A DNA stretch of 64,000 nt, taken from sequence record LR746311. One strand, written 5' to 3'. The notes under the pieces are model-generated. The model was not told the DNA's origin and did no database searches. It was given only the letters and a program-made list of their open reading frames with translations. This document shows positions 14,170 to 21,953 of the stretch, one piece after another (the first letter of the stretch is position 1; every line of letters starts with the position of its first letter). A program made the translations under genes and the position numbers. This stretch comes from Shigella phage vB_SsoM_113.

Positions 14170-14620
14170 GCTAGAGATAAGAAGCAATTTTAAATGGCCA
14201 TCATGCGCATTAAGTAATTTTGCCCAATGGCCTTTCGTTATGGATGGTATTCAATTTGGAGGTCTAGAAGGATTCCTCCAAGGGTGTAAGGTGAAAAATG
14301 TTGAACAACAACGTCGTATATTTGGGTTATCCGGGCTTGCCGCCCAACAGGCTGGAAGGTCTTATGCTAGAGCTCAGGACCGTGGCACGTTGTTCTGGCT
14401 TGGAGTTCCGTTTTCAAGATACTCCCCGGCGTGGAAAGAATTATACACAAATGCATATTTTGAAGCAGCGTTCCAAAACAAGGGCTTTCGCGATGCATTA
14501 CAAGCCTCGAAAGGAAAAGTTTTGAAGCACAGCATGGCTAGTGGTCTAACAAAAGATGATACAATACTAACCGAAGCTGAATTTATTGATGTGTTAAACC
14601 TATTAAGAGACTCTCTATGA
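14162..14620 (+). CDS. NADAR/YbiA-like (DUF1768) protein, putative ADP-ribose processing enzyme (30.3-like)
   Basis: ATG 14162 (track start 14156 is TTG); motif LSNFAQWPFVMDGIQF resembles E. coli YbiA FSNFAAWPIKVDG. Confidence 0.6.
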   Translation: MSELEIRSNFKWPSCALSNFAQWPFVMDGIQFGGLEGFLQGCKVKNVEQQRRIFGLSGLAAQQAGRSYARAQDRGTLFWLGVPFSRYSPAWKELYTNAYFEAAFQNKGFRDALQASKGKVLKHSMASGLTKDDTILTEAEFIDVLNLLRDSL

Positions 14621-15456
14621 AGCCTACTATTTTAACTGATATTGATGGAGTGTGTTTAAGCTGGCAATCAGGTCTTCCTTATTTTGCTCAGAAATATAAT
14701 CTTCCGTTAGAACATATTTTAAAAATGATCCAAGATGAGAAATTTATTTCTCCAGGTAAACTCTTTAATTGTGATGAAGAACTTGGTGTCAAGCTAATTG
14801 AAAAATACAATCGATCAGATTTTATTCGTTACTTGTCTCCATATAAAGATGCCTTGTGCGTAATTAACAAACTAAAAGAAGATTATAATTTTGTAGCTGT
14901 TACAGCGCTGGGTGATTCTATTGACGCTCTGTTGAATCGTCAATTTAATTTGAATGCTCTTTTTCCTGGTGCCTTCTCAGAAGTAATGATGTGTGGTCAT
15001 GATTCTTCAAAAGAAGAGTTGTTCAAAAAGGCAAAAGAGAAATATAACGTAATTTGTTATATTGACGATCTTGCTCACCACTGCGACCACGCGAGTGAAA
15101 TATTAAATGTTCCGGTTTATTGGATGGCTCGAGGAGAGCGTGACAATATTCCAAAAACTGCGCAGCGAGTTTATACATGGAATGATGTAGAAAATAAGTT
15201 TTTTTCGCCGAAGGAAAATAAAGAAAGTTTTGATAGTGAAAAAGCTATAAAAGATTTAATTGAGAAGATGGTTAAAAACGATTCTTTTCCTTGGAACACT
15301 ACCTGGAAAACGCCTGGATTTAATCCTTATAATCATCTATATCATCCATATCAGACACATCCGTTTCAGACATGGAACTACATTAAACCTGGTGGCATAG
15401 AGTATTTGTATAATAGACCTACTAGCGGTGATAATATTTTCCAAGGAGCATTCTAA
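14617..15456 (+). CDS. HAD-superfamily phosphatase/nucleotidase-like protein (30.2-like)
   Basis: 279 aa; N-terminal LTDIDGV (DxDG HAD motif I). Confidence 0.6.
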   Translation: MKPTILTDIDGVCLSWQSGLPYFAQKYNLPLEHILKMIQDEKFISPGKLFNCDEELGVKLIEKYNRSDFIRYLSPYKDALCVINKLKEDYNFVAVTALGDSIDALLNRQFNLNALFPGAFSEVMMCGHDSSKEELFKKAKEKYNVICYIDDLAHHCDHASEILNVPVYWMARGERDNIPKTAQRVYTWNDVENKFFSPKENKESFDSEKAIKDLIEKMVKNDSFPWNTTWKTPGFNPYNHLYHPYQTHPFQTWNYIKPGGIEYLYNRPTSGDNIFQGAF

Positions 15457-15725
15457 TGTTTGTTGTTCACACTATTTATGAAAATGAAGGTAATACTACA
15501 CGTGATTACGGTCACGTAAATCAATTTTTTAGATGTAATCCAGAATTCCGAGCTCAAAAAGACGAACGAATTTTTAAAAAATGTGTAGAGCAAGGTTTCA
15601 TTTACGTTAAGCACTGGATGCAAGGAAATAAAGTTAGAACTACATATCATAGGTCTTTGCCTGAGCTTAATGATGAATTGATTTATAATAGAGCTGTAAA
15701 CCAAACCTTGAAGGATGAGCAATGA
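15456..15725 (+). CDS. hypothetical protein (30.1-like)
   Basis: 89-aa ORF. Confidence 0.5.
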   Translation: MFVVHTIYENEGNTTRDYGHVNQFFRCNPEFRAQKDERIFKKCVEQGFIYVKHWMQGNKVRTTYHRSLPELNDELIYNRAVNQTLKDEQ

Positions 15726-17182
15726 TTCTTAAAATTCTGAATGAAATAGCATCTATTGGATCAACTAAGCAGAAGCAAGCAATTCTTGAAAAGAATAAAG
15801 ATAATGAATTGCTTAAACGAGTATATCGTCTGACTTATTCTCGTGGGTTACAGTATTATATCAAGAAATGGCCTAAACCTGGTATTGCTACCCAGAGTTT
15901 TGGAATGCTGACTATTACCGATATGCTTGACTTCATTGAATTCACGTTAGCTACTCGGAAATTGACTGGAAATGCTGCAATTGAGGAATTAACTGGATAT
16001 ATCACTGATGGTAAAAAGGATGATGTTGAAGTTTTGCGTCGAGTGATGATGCGAGATCTTGAATGCGGTGCTTCAGTATCTATTGCAAATAAAGTTTGGC
16101 CAGGTTTAATTCCTGAACAACCTCAAATGTTGGCAAGTTCTTATGATGAAAAAGGCATTAGTAAGAATATCAAATTTCCAGCCTTTGCACAGTTAAAAGC
16201 AGATGGAGCTCGGTGTTTTGCTGAAGTCCGAGGCGATGAATTAGATGATGTTCGTCTTTTATCACGAGCTGGTAATGAATATCTAGGATTAGATCTTCTT
16301 AAGGAAGAGTTAATCAAAATGACCGCTGAAGCTCGCCAGATTCATCCAGAAGGCGTGTTAATTGATGGCGAATTGGTATACCATGAGCAAGTTGAAAAAG
16401 AGCCAGAAGGCCTAGATTTTCTTTTTGATGCTCCTGAAATCAGTAAAGCTAAAGAGTTTTCCGAAGTAGCTGAATCACGTACTGCTTCTAATGGAATTGC
16501 CAATAAATCTTTAAAGGGAACTATTTCAGAAAAAGAAGCTCAATGTATGAAGTTTCAGGTCTGGGATTATGTCCCGTTAGTAGAAATATACGGTCTTCCA
16601 GCATTTCGTTTGAAGTATGATGTACGTTTTTCTAAACTAGAACAAATGACATCAGGATATGATAAAGTAATTTTAATTGAAAACCAGATAGTAAATAACC
16701 TAGATGAAGCTAAGGTAATTTATAAAAAGTATATTGACCAAGGTCTTGAAGGTATTATTCTCAAAAATATCGATGGATTATGGGAAAATTCTCGTTCAAA
16801 AAATCTCTATAAATTTAAAGAAGTAATTGATGTTGATTTAAAAATTGTAGGAATTTATCCTCACCGTAAAGACCCTACTAAAGCAGGTGGATTTATTCTT
16901 GAATCAGAGTGTGGAAAAATTAAAGTAAATGCTGGGTCAGGCTTAAAAGATAAAGCCGGTGTAAAATCGCATGAACTTGACCGTACTCGCATTATGGAAA
17001 ACCAAAATTATTATATTGGAAAAATTCTAGAGTGCGAATGCAATGGTTGGTTAAAATCTGATGGCCGCACTGATTACGTTAAATTATTTCTTCCGATTGC
17101 GATTCGTTTACGTGAAGATAAAACTAAAGCTAATACATTCGAGGATGTATTTGGTGATTTTCATGAGGTAACTGGTCTATGA
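15722..17182 (+). CDS. 30: ATP-dependent DNA ligase
   Basis: 486 aa; KADGAR adenylylation motif; recognised as T4 DNA ligase. Confidence 0.96.
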   Translation: MILKILNEIASIGSTKQKQAILEKNKDNELLKRVYRLTYSRGLQYYIKKWPKPGIATQSFGMLTITDMLDFIEFTLATRKLTGNAAIEELTGYITDGKKDDVEVLRRVMMRDLECGASVSIANKVWPGLIPEQPQMLASSYDEKGISKNIKFPAFAQLKADGARCFAEVRGDELDDVRLLSRAGNEYLGLDLLKEELIKMTAEARQIHPEGVLIDGELVYHEQVEKEPEGLDFLFDAPEISKAKEFSEVAESRTASNGIANKSLKGTISEKEAQCMKFQVWDYVPLVEIYGLPAFRLKYDVRFSKLEQMTSGYDKVILIENQIVNNLDEAKVIYKKYIDQGLEGIILKNIDGLWENSRSKNLYKFKEVIDVDLKIVGIYPHRKDPTKAGGFILESECGKIKVNAGSGLKDKAGVKSHELDRTRIMENQNYYIGKILECECNGWLKSDGRTDYVKLFLPIAIRLREDKTKANTFEDVFGDFHEVTGL

Positions 17183-17367
17183 AAGCTTACTTAGAAACAA
17201 TTGTCGTGGCTCAAAAAGAAGGTGGAGATGTTTCTACTTCTGTATCACAAATTATGATTGAATTTATAGATGCATATGCTTATAATAAATTCACAGAAAC
17301 ATTTGATACCTATGAAAAAGGTCCAAAGTTTGAAATATATCGTACTCTCTTACCAATAGATTATTAA
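17179..17367 (+). CDS. hypothetical small protein
   Basis: 62-aa ORF overlapping ligase stop; followed by hairpin and late promoter. Confidence 0.45.
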   Translation: MKAYLETIVVAQKEGGDVSTSVSQIMIEFIDAYAYNKFTETFDTYEKGPKFEIYRTLLPIDY

Positions 17368-17383
17368 AGGCCTTCGGGCCTTT
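17366..17383 (+). terminator. hairpin AAAGGCC-TTCG-GGCCTTT with U-rich tail
   Basis: Follows 62-aa ORF stop; AATTTTA downstream. Confidence 0.5.
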
Positions 17384-17388
17384 AATTT

Positions 17389-17396
17389 TATAAATA
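17389..17396 (+). promoter_or_regulatory. late promoter TATAAATA upstream of alt
   Basis: Exact TATAAATA 24 nt upstream of alt ATG. Confidence 0.6.
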
Positions 17397-17419
17397 GAAT
17401 AAACACTAGAGAGGATATG

Positions 17420-19513
17420 ATGGAACTCATTACAGAATTATTTGACGAAGATACTACTCTTCCGATTACAAACTTAAATCCAAAGAAGAAAATACCGCAA
17501 ATTTTTTCAGTTCATGTTGATGACGCAATTGAACAACCAGGTTTTCGTTTATGTACCTATACATCTGGAGGTGATACTAATCGCGATTTAAAAATGGGCG
17601 ATAAAATGATGCATATTGTTCCTTTTACATTAACTGCTAAAGGTTCAATTGCTAAATTAAAAGGTCTCGGTCCAAGCCCAATTAATTACATCAATTCAGT
17701 TTTTACTGTTGCGATGCAGACGATGCGTCAGTATAAAATTGATGCATGTATGCTCCGTATTCTTAAGTCTAAAACTGCTGGTCAAGCTCGTCAAATTCAA
17801 CTTATTGCTGATAGACTTATCCGTAGTCGTTCAGGTGGCAGATACGTCCTTCTTAAGGAACTCTGGGATTATGATAAAAAGTATGCATATATTCTTATAC
17901 ATCGCAAAAATGTATCATTAGAAGACATTCCAGGAGTTCCAGAAATTAGTACCGAGCTCTTTACTAAAGTTGAATCGAAGGTCGGTGATGTTTATATCAA
18001 TAAAGATACTGGAGCTCAAGTAACTAAAAATGAGGCAATTGCTGCATCTATTGCGCAAGAAAATGATAAACGTTCTGACCAAGCGGTAATCGTTAAAGTT
18101 AAAATTTCCCGTAGAGCAATTGCACAAAGTCAGTCATTGGAATCTTCTAGATTTGAAAGTGAATTATTCCAGAAGTATGAATCTACCGCAGCTAATTTCA
18201 ATAAACCTGCTACAGCTCCTTTAATTCCCGAAGCAGAAGAAATGAAGCTTGGAATTAATTCATTAGCTTCTAAAACTAAGGCAGCAAAAATTATTGCTGA
18301 AGGAACTGCAGATGAACTTCATTATGACTATAAATTCTTTTCAAAAAGTGAGGTTAATGAAGTTTCTGAAAAAATTAAAGATGTAATTCTTAATGCGATT
18401 AAAAATGAACCAACTACTTCAATAAAATGTTTAGAGAAATACGCAGCAGCTGTTAATCAATTATTTGAAGAATATAAAGATAACTGGCTTGATAAACATA
18501 ATAAAACTCGTAAAGGACAAACAGATGAAGTCTGGGAAGAAATAACTAAAAATTCCTGGAACGCAGCAAAAACTAAATTCCTCAAACGAATGATTTATAG
18601 CTTTTCCGGAATTGGTGCAGGTCCAATGATTGATATTACTATTGCCCGTGATGGTTCTAAATATACTCCATCACAAAAGCGCGGCATTAGAGAGTATTGT
18701 GGTTCAGGATATACTGACATCAATAATCTTCTTTTGGGTCGTTACAATCCAGAACGATATGATGTAATGAGTGAAAAAGAAATTGAATCTGCTATAAATA
18801 ACTTAGATTCAGCTTTTGAAAACGGTGACCGTATACCAGAAGGCATTACAGTTTATCGTGCTCAAAGCATGACTGCTCCTATATACGAAGCATTAGTTAA
18901 AAATAAAGTATTCTATTTCAGAAATTTTGTATCTACTTCTTTAACTCCTATCATTTTTGGACGTTTTGGAATTACACATGCTGGTATTGGTCTTTTAGAA
19001 CCAGAAGCTCGTAATGAATTGACAGTTGATAAAAATGAAGAAGGAATAACTATTAATCCAAACGAAATAAGAGCATATAAAGAAAATCCTGAATACGTTA
19101 AAGTTCAAATAGGATGGGCAATTGATGGAGCTCATAAAGTTAATGTTGTATATCCAGGAAGTCTCGGAATAGCAACAGAAGCTGAAGTTATTCTACCACG
19201 CGGATTGATGGTCAAAGTTAATAAAATAACTGATGCTTCTAATAATGACGGAACAACATCTAATAATACAAAACTCATTCAAGCTGAAGTTATGACTACG
19301 GAAGAACTCACCGAATCAGTAATTTATGACGGTGATCGTCTAATGGAAACTGGTGAAGTAGTTGCAATGACAGGTGATATTGAAATAGAAGACAGAGTTG
19401 ATTTTGCATCATTTGTTTCATCAAATGTTAAACAAAAAGTAGAATCATCTCTTGGAATTATTGCGTCTTGCATAGATATTGCAAACATGCCTTACAAGTT
19501 CGTTCAAGGATAA
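17420..19513 (+). CDS. alt: Alt-family ADP-ribosyltransferase (positional alt)
   Basis: 697 aa from ATG 17420 (MELITELF...); C-terminal R/S/E ART elements (YRAQ ... FVSTSL ... EAEVILPRG). Confidence 0.88.
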   Translation: MELITELFDEDTTLPITNLNPKKKIPQIFSVHVDDAIEQPGFRLCTYTSGGDTNRDLKMGDKMMHIVPFTLTAKGSIAKLKGLGPSPINYINSVFTVAMQTMRQYKIDACMLRILKSKTAGQARQIQLIADRLIRSRSGGRYVLLKELWDYDKKYAYILIHRKNVSLEDIPGVPEISTELFTKVESKVGDVYINKDTGAQVTKNEAIAASIAQENDKRSDQAVIVKVKISRRAIAQSQSLESSRFESELFQKYESTAANFNKPATAPLIPEAEEMKLGINSLASKTKAAKIIAEGTADELHYDYKFFSKSEVNEVSEKIKDVILNAIKNEPTTSIKCLEKYAAAVNQLFEEYKDNWLDKHNKTRKGQTDEVWEEITKNSWNAAKTKFLKRMIYSFSGIGAGPMIDITIARDGSKYTPSQKRGIREYCGSGYTDINNLLLGRYNPERYDVMSEKEIESAINNLDSAFENGDRIPEGITVYRAQSMTAPIYEALVKNKVFYFRNFVSTSLTPIIFGRFGITHAGIGLLEPEARNELTVDKNEEGITINPNEIRAYKENPEYVKVQIGWAIDGAHKVNVVYPGSLGIATEAEVILPRGLMVKVNKITDASNNDGTTSNNTKLIQAEVMTTEELTESVIYDGDRLMETGEVVAMTGDIEIEDRVDFASFVSSNVKQKVESSLGIIASCIDIANMPYKFVQG

Positions 19514-19516
19514 ATC

Positions 19517-21574
19517 ATGGAACTTATTACAGAATTATTTGACGGCGCTTCGGCGCCGGTTGTTAACTTAAATCCTAAGCATAAAATACCTCAAATTTTT
19601 GCTATTCAAGCCGGTGAAGAAAGCGTGCTTCCTGGATTTAGATTTTGTACATACACCTCTGGTGGTGATACAAATAAAAACGTTAAGCCAGGCGATAAAA
19701 TGATGCATATCGTAATGATAGGTGTCAATGAGAAACTATCATTAGTTAAACTTAAAAACTTGGGTGGAAATCCAATTGGTGTCATTAATGCCGTTTTTGA
19801 TACTGCTCTTCAAACAATGAAACAGTATAAAATTGACGCATGCCTATTCCGCGTACTAAAGAGTAAAACAAATGGCGCAGCTCGTCAAATGCAAGTTATT
19901 GCTGACCGTTTAGTACGTACTAAAGGAGCAGGTCGATATGTTCTTTTAAAAGAAATCTGGGATTATGATAAAAAGTATGCATATATTATGGTTTACCGTA
20001 AAAATGCCAATTTAGAAGACATTCCAGGTGTACCTCCTATTTCAACTGAGTTATTCACAAAAGTTGAATCAAAGGTTGGTGATGTTTATGTAGATGTTAA
20101 AACAGGTAATGCTGTTCCTAAAGCCGTTGCTGTGGCTGCTTCTATTGCTTTAGAAAATGATAAGCGCACGGATCAAGCTGTTATTCAGAAAACTAAAATT
20201 AGCCGTCGATTAGCAGCACAAGCTCAATATTCTACTGTCGATGCTTCACTTCAGGGTGATAGCTTCGCTGCCAAGAAATATCAAGAGTTTGAATCTAAAG
20301 TTCCGGTATATAAAGCAGAAGGACCAATGAACTCTGGTGTTATTCAGATTGGTTCCAACTTCAGCAAAGGAGCTATCGGTGGTATGAGAAGTGCTTCTCG
20401 TTTTAAATCTAACGATTATGAACTAGAAAGCTTCCGAAATCATATTGCATTGGCCCATGCACGTTTACGTGATCCGTCTATCAGACTGCAGAGCGATATA
20501 ACATATCAAGGTTCTCAAGAATATTTAAAGAATAAAGAATTTTTTGATTATAAAACCGATAAAATTTTGAGCGATCTCGCTGACATTAATATTTCTAATA
20601 GCTTTGATGTTATTAAGAAAATTGTCAATGATTTAGTTAAAGGTTCTAAAGCCGCACCAGACGAAAAGGTAGCTATTATTCAATTTGTCATGAATAGCAT
20701 TTATAAATTGATTAATGAATCTGCTGCTCAGGCATATGAATACGCAAGCACCGAAGTAACTCCAAAAGGATTAACTCAGTCTGAGTCTGATGTAATTGAA
20801 GATTATTGTGCAGATTCATATGTTGAAATGAACTCGTTCCTCTTGGGTAAACCAGATTCTACCCGTGAAGAATACATGGAACGAGCTATTAAACACATCG
20901 AGACGCTGGATTCTGCATTCGCCAAAGGATCAGTTCTTCCTCCAGGAACTACGCTTTATCGTGGGCAAGAAGTTACTTTTAAAACTTTACGTCATAATAT
21001 TGAAAATAAAATGTTCTATTTTAAGAACTTCGTATCAACATCGCTTAAACCAAATATCTTCGGTGAGCATGGTAAAAACTATATGGCTCTAGATGATTCA
21101 GGTGCAGTATTTTCTGGTGAAGGAGAAGGTTCTGTTGATGCTGAAGATTTAATGCATATGGGTAGTCATTCTGCATATGCTAATGAAGATGCTGAAGCTA
21201 GCGTAGGTATGGTAATTAAAGGGGCTGAGCGAATCAAAGTTATCGTTCCAGGTCATTTATCAGGATTTCCATCAGAAGCTGAAGTTATTCTACCACGTGG
21301 AATTTTGTTAAAGATTAATAAAGTAAGCACGTACATGATGAAAGAAACTGCTTATAACAAGTATCTAATCGAAGGCACAATCGTTCCTCCTTCTGAACAA
21401 TTAGAAGAATCAGTATATGATGGCGATCATCTAATGGAAACTGGTGAAGTTCGTCCAATGGCTAGGTTTAATCAATTCCTTGTAGAAGAATCAAAAGAAG
21501 AGGAAAACGAAGTTTCTCAAATCTTGGCTTCTTTGGTTAACATCAATGGAATGTCTAAAAAGTTCAAGATGTAG
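19517..21574 (+). CDS. second Alt-family ADP-ribosyltransferase (tandem paralogue)
   Basis: 685 aa (MELITELFDG...); conserved N-terminal region and C-terminal YRGQ ... FVSTSL ... EAEVILPRG; middle region diverged. Confidence 0.85.
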   Translation: MELITELFDGASAPVVNLNPKHKIPQIFAIQAGEESVLPGFRFCTYTSGGDTNKNVKPGDKMMHIVMIGVNEKLSLVKLKNLGGNPIGVINAVFDTALQTMKQYKIDACLFRVLKSKTNGAARQMQVIADRLVRTKGAGRYVLLKEIWDYDKKYAYIMVYRKNANLEDIPGVPPISTELFTKVESKVGDVYVDVKTGNAVPKAVAVAASIALENDKRTDQAVIQKTKISRRLAAQAQYSTVDASLQGDSFAAKKYQEFESKVPVYKAEGPMNSGVIQIGSNFSKGAIGGMRSASRFKSNDYELESFRNHIALAHARLRDPSIRLQSDITYQGSQEYLKNKEFFDYKTDKILSDLADINISNSFDVIKKIVNDLVKGSKAAPDEKVAIIQFVMNSIYKLINESAAQAYEYASTEVTPKGLTQSESDVIEDYCADSYVEMNSFLLGKPDSTREEYMERAIKHIETLDSAFAKGSVLPPGTTLYRGQEVTFKTLRHNIENKMFYFKNFVSTSLKPNIFGEHGKNYMALDDSGAVFSGEGEGSVDAEDLMHMGSHSAYANEDAEASVGMVIKGAERIKVIVPGHLSGFPSEAEVILPRGILLKINKVSTYMMKETAYNKYLIEGTIVPPSEQLEESVYDGDHLMETGEVRPMARFNQFLVEESKEEENEVSQILASLVNINGMSKKFKM

Positions 21575-21603
21575 TTTACAAGTCCATCGTGTTGTGTTAT
21601 AAT
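21574..21603 (+). promoter_or_regulatory. T4 early-type promoter, copy 2 of repeated cassette
   Basis: GTTTAC 21574-21579, 18-nt spacer, TATAAT 21598-21603. Confidence 0.55.
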
Positions 21604-21634: not shown

Positions 21635-21925
21635 ATGAAATCTTCTTTACGCTTTTTAGGTCAAGAACTTATAGTTGAAGGCGTTATTCCTGCTGATAAT
21701 GCTTTTAATGAAGCAGTTTATGATGAATTTATCAAAATTTTTGGAATAGATAAAAAGTTCGGAATTTTTCCTTCTGAAAATTTTTCAAAGCCAGAGCAGA
21801 CTGAAAGCATTTTCCAAGGTGTAGTAACAGGTAAATTCGAGTCAGAAGCTCCGGTAAAAATTGAAGTTTATATTGAAGACAGTTTAGTTGCTTCAGTTGC
21901 TGCTTTTATTTCATTCCGTAAATAA
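21635..21925 (+). CDS. hypothetical protein
   Basis: 96-aa ORF after GAGGA; preceded by second copy of promoter/hairpin cassette. Confidence 0.5.
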   Translation: MKSSLRFLGQELIVEGVIPADNAFNEAVYDEFIKIFGIDKKFGIFPSENFSKPEQTESIFQGVVTGKFESEAPVKIEVYIEDSLVASVAAFISFRK

Positions 21926-21930
21926 AAATA

Positions 21931-21950
21931 TGGGGACCAAAAGGTCCCCA
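21931..21950. terminator. bidirectional hairpin terminator between convergent ORF (21635..21925) and gene 54
   Basis: TGGGGACC-AAAA-GGTCCCCA flanked by T-rich sequence on both strands. Confidence 0.6.
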
Positions 21951-21953
21951 TTG

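Follow-up and report, generated by a model that had tools for sequence, protein, structure and literature searches.

What is the normal content of the alt locus in T-even phages: a single gene for the injected ADP-ribosyltransferase (ART), as in phage T4, or more than one? The question is raised by Shigella phage vB_SsoM_113 (sequence record LR746311), from which we have analyzed a stretch of 64,000 nucleotides, here called the window. It is a segment of a Tequatrovirus (T4-like) genome in which the + strand is the early-gene direction. A first-pass annotation made from the letters alone had described in it two adjacent open reading frames (ORFs) of 697 and 685 amino acids (aa), and both are there: they are complete, lie on the + strand and are separated by 3 nt (Table 1). 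We will call them copy 1 and copy 2. The same annotation described T4 as having one alt gene and small ORFs towards gene 54, which the T4 reference record confirms, its order being alt, alt.-1, alt.-2 and alt.-3; it suggested that the second copy was then a lineage-specific expansion. Our results lead to the opposite view: the two genes are almost certainly intact, ancestral paralogues of the Alt family, and it is T4 which has departed from this state.

The evidence is found in the small ORFs of T4. The products of alt.-1 and alt.-2 (NP_049810 and NP_049809) are near-identical to residues 1–55 and 62–116 of copy 2, not to copy 1. Their PHROG families also match copy 2 (2e-40 and 3e-38) better than copy 1 (1e-21 and 2e-19). 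They correspond to the first ~116 codons of copy 2, which are intact in the window but broken in T4: a deletion of 1 nt in a run of A, AATAAAAAC to AATAAAAC, creates the stop codon of alt.-1. A blastn comparison of the T4 locus with the window reveals that a further segment of copy 2 is missing in T4 (Table 1). The deletion junction has a 9-bp microhomology, CTAAA(A/G)AGT, and is out of frame. The frameshift and the loss of 1.69 kb therefore identify T4 as the derived, degraded state. A note in the T4 record itself derives alt.-1/alt.-2 from an old duplication of the initial part of alt. The identical two-gene arrangement, which in T4 would by the first-pass annotation have told against an expansion, is literally absent there, but its remnant is already annotated as a duplication. 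The deletion junction argues against the reverse course, a partial duplication which later grew into a full gene.

The loss is shared by other phages. Of the 499 phage records which match a 301-nt probe with the junction at its centre, 91 do so without a break: they comprise T4 stocks and also natural isolates such as RB55, RB59, vB_EcoM_112, SG1 and slur03. Copy 2 is intact in about 401 records (at least 90% aa identity over the full length), with 396 at 95% or more. The whole two-gene region is covered to at least 80% in 340 records, and the DNA of the locus is 97–98% identical to many phage records. An individual check of T6, AR1, ime09 and phiC600P9 showed the intact pair in each. Over the genus, intact copy 2 is present in about 80% of the Tequatrovirus records; T4 and about 18% of them have the deletion.

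Other genera place copy 2 in a wider context. In the same slot Escherichia phage MX01 (Dhakavirus) has three tandem Alt genes; phage JSE (Krischvirus) has one, together with an ORF of 274 aa which aligns only with the C-terminal half of Alt, in its ART region (~30%). The nearest relatives of copy 2 outside its genus are gp194 of MX01, the last gene of that array, and the Alt protein of JS10. Identity with them is 47% (middle region), 60% (ART domain) and 64% (C-terminal tail), while the corresponding values with copy 1 are 14%, 36% and 37%. The second gene of MX01, gp195, has 10–23% identity to the window copies in the middle and 38–41% in the ART domain: it represents a third effector type.

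Could the second copy nevertheless be a recent duplication of one lineage, the single gene of T4 being ancestral? T4 has one full-length alt and so has Mosigvirus HX01, in the same slot. The N-terminal domains are also somewhat closer within the genome (68%) than to other genera (42–45%). But the frameshifted, internally deleted copy 2 of T4 already refutes this explanation, the gene is intact in most of the genus, and beyond the N domain it resembles its MX01 and JS10 relatives much more than copy 1. Even the N domains, 66% identical between the two copies, are hardly closer than those of copy 2 and several other family representatives (59–65%). Moreover, the counterpart of copy 2 holds the same last position in the three-gene array of MX01. 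We give a recent duplication practically no weight. As copy 2 is closer to MX01 gp194 than to copy 1 and is intact in most relatives, the second gene is old and no lineage-specific expansion; with T4 alt.-1/alt.-2 as its remnant and an intact pair in about 400 records, T6 and AR1 among them, the claim of an expansion has to be reversed.

The old gene is also a well-preserved one. We have determined the ratio of nonsynonymous to synonymous substitutions (dN/dS) by pairwise Nei-Gojobori comparisons in five Tequatrovirus phages, where dS of copy 2 ranges from 0.07 to 0.25. Its overall dN/dS is 0.04–0.09 (~0.05), and in the three informative comparisons no region reaches 0.1 (Table 1); between the window and ime09, the closest pair, the substitutions in each region are too few to inform. 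Alleles of the copy 1 type have values of 0.015–0.03. A pseudogene or a decaying duplicate is ruled out by a ratio of ~0.05: as judged from its substitutions, copy 2 is a working gene under strong purifying selection.

Both copies belong to the same family. They align from end to end with 41% identity (E = 4e-157), far beyond chance, and both start with MELITELFD. Each has the Pfam domain PF03496 (ADPrib_exo_Tox, ADP-ribosyltransferase exoenzyme), with E values of 1.5e-37 in copy 1 and 3.1e-20 in copy 2, and each matches phrog_802, 'Alt-like RNA polymerase ADP-ribosyltransferase', over its full length. NCBIfam gave no match for either. All the motifs quoted in the first-pass annotation are found in the sequence, and after alignment the catalytic set is complete in both: R480 (YRAQ), S505-T-S507 (FVSTSL) and E587-A-E589 (EAEVILPRG) in copy 1; R482 (YRGQ), S507-T-S509 (FVSTSL) and E587-A-E589 (EAEVILPRG) in copy 2. 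The check for a loss of these residues was negative, so that the competent appearance ascribed to both copies is upheld at this level. R, STS and ExE are invariant in alignments of 31–32 relatives and are kept in 61 of the 62 family representatives with an alignable ART domain, the sole exception being P0183.

Structural comparisons lead to the same group of enzymes. The AlphaFold2 (AF2) model of copy 2 has a mean predicted local distance difference test score (pLDDT) of 76.9, and its best fold matches in the Protein Data Bank (PDB) are Vis, Certhrax, CDTa, C3, VIP2 and iota Ia. These proteins are members of the R-S-E clade of ARTs, and an ExE motif is typical of the arginine-specific members of this clade. 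By sequence, a PDB search with copy 2 gave nothing at E <= 0.01, copy 1 gave only weak matches with ART toxins (CdtA, iota Ia), and neither search turned up a solved Alt structure. Taken together, motifs and predicted fold support the assignment of both copies to Alt-family ARTs that appear catalytically competent.

One may ask whether copy 2 serves above all as a structural or scaffolding component of the prohead core, its ART activity being irrelevant or lost. No part of the protein is as constrained as the N domain (dN/dS ~0.01), and T4 Alt has been described as an important core protein apart from catalysis (PMC11404850). However, R482, S507-T-S509 and E587-x-E589 are intact and invariant, the ART domain has a dN/dS of only ~0.05, and T4 assembles normally without copy 2. 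Such a role is very improbable.

The N domain is confined to this family. A search with that of copy 2 among 1.84 billion representative proteins gave 69 representatives at 50% identity; in all of them it is N-terminal, in proteins mostly of 600–712 aa. The cluster representatives P0001 and P0028 carry the precomputed domain PF26846 (N-terminal Alt domain). Of the 66 representatives scanned, 64 have PF03496 and no other Pfam domain appears, so the Alt N domain is peculiar to ARTs of the Alt type and no delivery module of general use. We had considered that it might carry effectors other than ARTs elsewhere, an idea which is rejected by the same count; of the two representatives that gave no PF03496 match, at least P0122 is too short for an ART domain.

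A sliding-window comparison, together with identities domain by domain, divides each protein into four parts (Table 1), which have diverged to very different degrees. The N domains (aa ~1–240) have 66–68% identity and are alpha/beta in both AF2 models. In the middle (aa ~241–410) identity falls to 13–20%, BLASTP finds no cross-match between the two regions, and a profile-profile comparison of the two families they represent is negative (probability 1.2%). The 'unrelated middle segments' of the first-pass annotation are therefore borne out by the sequences; yet both regions are predicted to be all-helical, with confidence in the AF2 models, and have a similar size (~170 aa). The ART domains (aa ~411–631) are 36% identical, with a variable insert between the STS and ExE motifs, and the loop before ExE differs as well (GIATEAE vs GFPSEAE). 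The tails, i.e. the last 55–65 residues, are 37% identical and acidic, with an isoelectric point (pI) of 4.1–4.5; both open with a conserved SV(I)YDGDxLMETGE block, and in copy 2 the conserved SVYDGDHLMETGE follows the L-x-E site. Compared with T4 Alt, copy 2 has 43% identity overall and 68% in the N domain (residues 1–235 of T4 Alt), and its middle region is not detectably related.

These differences bear on the possibility that copy 2 is a redundant back-up or dosage copy, acting on the targets of copy 1 (RNA polymerase alpha and others). The two proteins share family, catalytic motifs and predicted processing sites, they probably come from one transcript, and the loss of the gene in T4 and 90 other records suggests that it is dispensable. 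On the other hand, the ART domains differ in sequence, inserts and pre-ExE loops, the middle regions are not detectably homologous, and each type is maintained across genera as a lineage of its own, with strong purifying selection, which is unexpected for a redundant gene. We consider redundancy unlikely.

Copy 1 has a different history. Its DNA is 93–99% identical to T4 alt in codons 1–240, only 37–79% in codons ~250–620 and again 87–96% in the last ~70 codons. The comparison with gp196 of MX01 gives the complementary picture: ~55% in the N domain, 60–84% in the middle and 89–97% in codons ~463–624. The proteins behave likewise, with identities to T4 Alt of 99% in the N domain, 30% in the middle, 67% in the ART domain and 95% in the tail; against MX01 gp196 the middle has 64% and the ART domain 95%. 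By these identities copy 1 is recombinant: its ends resemble T4 and its effector module is one that it has in common with Dhakavirus, which points to exchange of this module between genera. The module of the copy 1 type is found at 95% or more in 316 records, T6, RB5 and RB68 included, while modules of the T4 type stand at ~47%. The first position of the array is thus polymorphic within the genus; the second is near-monomorphic, as the 396 records mentioned above indicate, or deleted. Across genera, the N domains of Alt tend to group by phage genus and the effector parts by type. Such grouping fits either cassette exchange between conserved ends or homogenization of the N domains.

How are the two genes expressed? 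A generic promoter and terminator scan gave no excess over shuffled sequence, so we report only sites which are conserved and supported by their context (Table 1). Upstream of copy 1 a hairpin overlaps the stop codon of alt.1 and is directly followed on its 3' side by the late-promoter consensus TATAAATA. The whole block is identical in T4, T6, AR1, ime09 and phiC600P9, and TATAAATA is kept in six Tequatrovirus loci, T4 included. The hairpin is missing from the output of a simple terminator scan; a conserved terminator upstream of alt was predicted by Nolan et al. 2006 (PMC1524935). Copy 2 has its own Shine-Dalgarno sequence, AAGGA. A late promoter of its own was looked for and none was found, the hairpin and late-promoter motif being present upstream of copy 1 only. 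Given this lack and the gap of 3 nt, copy 2 is probably co-transcribed with copy 1. The only other TATAAATA, also exact, lies at 18793–18800 within the coding sequence of copy 1 (codons A-I-N-N). It is kept in alleles of the copy 1 type (ime09, T6) and absent from those of T4, AR1 and phiC600P9. It is probably a coding coincidence, but it could provide extra late transcription of copy 2. After the stop codon of copy 2 there is a promoter-like site with 11 of 12 matches, the best score of the region. The sequence immediately 3' of the deletion junction is retained in T4.

The processing of T4 Alt is well described: it is a protein of the prohead core, present in ~40 copies per head, ejected with the DNA and cleaved at both ends (PMC9026906, PMC5694885). 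The prohead protease gp21 cuts after ITE-6 and LTE-619 and removes 63 C-terminal residues (PMC5694885). ITE-6 is present in both copies, and the position aligned with LTE-619 is occupied by LTE-632 in copy 1 and LEE-631 in copy 2, a correspondence at the level of motifs. The mature proteins predicted from these motifs would have 70.1 and 69.1 kDa.

From all these features we consider it quite probable that the locus is a standard alt array of the T-even phages, with two paralogous Alt-type internal head proteins of which the second is ancestral. Its operation may be outlined by homology with T4 Alt. Both genes would be transcribed late from the TATAAATA promoter at 17389, with copy 2 translated by coupling, through the 3-nt gap and its AAGGA Shine-Dalgarno sequence. 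The shared N-terminal domain would bring both proteins into the prohead core, where gp21 would trim them at both ends to ~70 and ~69 kDa. Both enzymes would accompany the DNA on injection and then, before any gene of the phage is expressed, mono-ADP-ribosylate arginines of host proteins. The divergent helical and ART modules would give them different sets of targets. T4 and ~18% of its sequenced relatives have lost the second gene by the frameshift and the 1.69-kb deletion. By analogy with T4 we lean towards packaging, processing and injection of both copies; that they have distinct targets, as their divergence suggests, seems to us about evenly balanced.

Several points weigh against this outline. 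The 91 records without intact copy 2 include natural isolates, and the gene must therefore be dispensable at least on some hosts. Since it has no late promoter of its own, its late expression depends on read-through from copy 1. Further L/I-x-E triplets occur at several positions in both proteins, so the motif by itself is no proof of cleavage. The argument for different targets is drawn from sequence divergence alone. Finally, our literature searches found no virion proteomics which covers copy 2, nor activity data, targets or other experimental work on a second Alt.

Among known systems, T4 Alt (NP_049811, a packaged NAD+--arginine ADP-ribosyltransferase) shares with the window copies the locus, the four-part architecture, the MELITE start and the catalytic motifs; it differs from copy 1 in the middle and ART regions, precisely where copy 1 resembles MX01 gp196. 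T6, RB32, AR1, ime09 and Shfl2 have the same tandem pair, with nothing material different in the window. MX01 and 44RR (ORF187c) are other Tevenvirinae with annotated tandem Alt-like genes. ModA and ModB of T4 are also ARTs of the R-S-E clade which act on host proteins of transcription and translation (PMC9503650), but they are early, non-packaged proteins of ~200 aa from a different locus and lack the N-terminal Alt domain. The window copies do not belong with them: the best BLASTP values are E 0.99 to 7 over 22–62 residues, and tblastn finds no ModA/ModB homologue in the window. The bacterial toxins mentioned above, C3 exoenzyme, VIP2, iota Ia, CDTa, Vis and Certhrax, share the catalytic fold and the R, STS and ExE motifs (Foldseek E 1e-6 to 1e-3) with 13–20% identity; they rely on secretion or binary-toxin delivery, in contrast to the phage-head N-terminal domain of Alt. 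As an analogy only, the internal proteins IPI–IPIII of T4, for which the concept of a capsid targeting sequence (CTS) has been described (PMC9026906), and the polymorphic toxin systems also combine a conserved delivery or targeting part with a variable effector exchanged by recombination. In Alt, unlike these systems, an ART always makes up the variable part (64 of 66 representatives), so that diversity is found within one enzyme class.

The two-gene arrangement is in itself already known, annotated in RefSeq and the majority state in sequenced T-even phages: many RefSeq records label both genes 'Alt-like RNA polymerase ADP-ribosyltransferase'. Nolan et al. 2006 listed T4 alt.-1/alt.-2, RB49 ORF183c and 44RR ORF187c/188c as alt paralogues (PMC1524935), and a 2026 paper reports a pair of Alt-like paralogues of 43% identity in a Tequatrovirus and suggests their functional divergence (PMC13600099), in essence the idea of the first-pass annotation. 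In the literature we searched we did not find it stated that alt.-1/alt.-2 are the deletion remnant of a full paralogue which is the majority state of the genus, nor that the second Alt paralogue is under strong constraint, nor that copy 1 is an inter-genus mosaic. A mutant of the catalytic glutamate of T4 Alt, 'E577A' as numbered there, abolishes ADP-ribosylation (PMC11404850). In the NC_000866 translation the ExE glutamates are E574 and E576, and the published LTE-619 numbering does match it.

The features of the locus are collected in Table 1. The pair, on the early-gene strand, is flanked by gene 30/alt.1 and alt.-3/gene 54, which is the position of the Alt family. For copy 1 the mechanical ORF starts one codon upstream, at 17417 (ATGATG); we have placed the start at 17420 because it is favoured by the spacing of the GAGGA Shine-Dalgarno sequence, the annotated MELITE start of T4 and the published ITE-6 numbering. 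The upstream neighbour alt.1 keeps its position in T4, ime09, MX01 and HX01. In Tequatrovirus alt.1 and alt.-3 flank the array, and in Dhakavirus and Mosigvirus there are small ORFs at equivalent positions. Near 22 kb, at the meeting point of the early-strand genes and the convergent late baseplate genes, the sign of the GC skew is reversed. In the whole window a tRNA scan detected no tRNA genes, and an Rfam scan at the gathering threshold no family.

Table 1. Features of the alt locus in the window (positions in nt; dN/dS values are for copy 2)
Feature	Position	Strand	Remarks
30.2	14617–15456	+	ORF upstream of the alt pair
30.1	15456–15725	+	ORF upstream of the alt pair
DNA ligase gp30	15722–17182	+	ORF upstream of the alt pair
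alt.1	17179–17367	+	62 aa; Pfam PF24647 'Phage_blade', 5.4e-29
Hairpin AAAGGCC-TTCG-GGCCTTT, then AATTTT	17366–17389	+	Likely intrinsic terminator of early transcripts upstream of alt, as read from the sequence
Late-promoter consensus of T4, TATAAATA	17389–17396	+	24 nt upstream of the copy 1 start; putative function, from the consensus
Alt copy 1	17420–19513	+	697 aa; mosaic allele of T4 alt
Copy 1, N-terminal Alt domain	17420–18139	+	aa 1–240; ITE-6 motif; basic, pI 9.5
Copy 1, variable helical middle region	18140–18649	+	aa 241–410
Copy 1, ART domain	18650–19315	+	aa 411–632; ends at LTE-632
Copy 1, acidic C-terminal segment and stop	19316–19513	+	aa 633–697; pI 4.1; counterpart of the 63-residue propeptide of T4 Alt
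Alt copy 2	19517–21574	+	685 aa; intact counterpart of the T4 alt.-1/alt.-2 remnant
Copy 2, N-terminal Alt domain	19517–20236	+	aa 1–240; ITE-6 motif; basic, pI 9.7; dN/dS ~0.01
Copy 2, variable helical middle region	20237–20752	+	aa 241–412; pLDDT 80–92; dN/dS ~0.09
Copy 2, ART domain	20753–21409	+	aa 413–631; ends at LEE-631; dN/dS ~0.05
Copy 2, acidic C-terminal segment and stop	21410–21574	+	aa 632–685; pI 4.5; putative propeptide; low pLDDT; dN/dS 0.03–0.07
Segment of copy 2 deleted in T4 and 90 other records	19865–21554	+	~1.69 kb; blastn of the T4 locus against the window
Sigma-70-like promoter, TTTACA-17-TATAAT with extended TG	21575–21603	+	Immediately follows the stop of copy 2, upstream of alt.-3; putative, a consensus match
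alt.-3	21635–21925	+	96 aa; DUF5498, 2.5e-63; conserved downstream neighbour
Bidirectional hairpin terminator	21930–21951	.	Between alt.-3 and convergent late gene 54
gp54, gp48	Downstream of alt.-3	opposite	Late genes; gene 54 convergent

A wider reading of the locus can be offered tentatively, as somewhat short of an even chance: alt would be a recombining array of injected-effector cassettes, in which the conserved N domain and the C-terminal propeptide are the fixed ends and the helical-plus-ART modules are swapped, even between genera. Copy 2 would then be an injected ART with a host target of its own, possibly a defence or stress protein. Swapping is suggested by the DNA of copy 1, which in its ART part is 89–97% identical to the Dhakavirus gene, with only ~55% in the N domain.

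For the T-even phages the results mean that T4 is the exception: its second alt has decayed, and its first is a minority allele. What has been concluded on 'the' injected ADP-ribosyltransferase of these phages is therefore based on an incomplete set. Conservation of the second Alt enzyme is strong, and the mosaic structure of copy 1 indicates that Alt exchanges its effector part between genera. If the cassette-array reading is true, work based on T4 would have overlooked a regular member of the injected arsenal, which is present in ~80% of the T-even phages.

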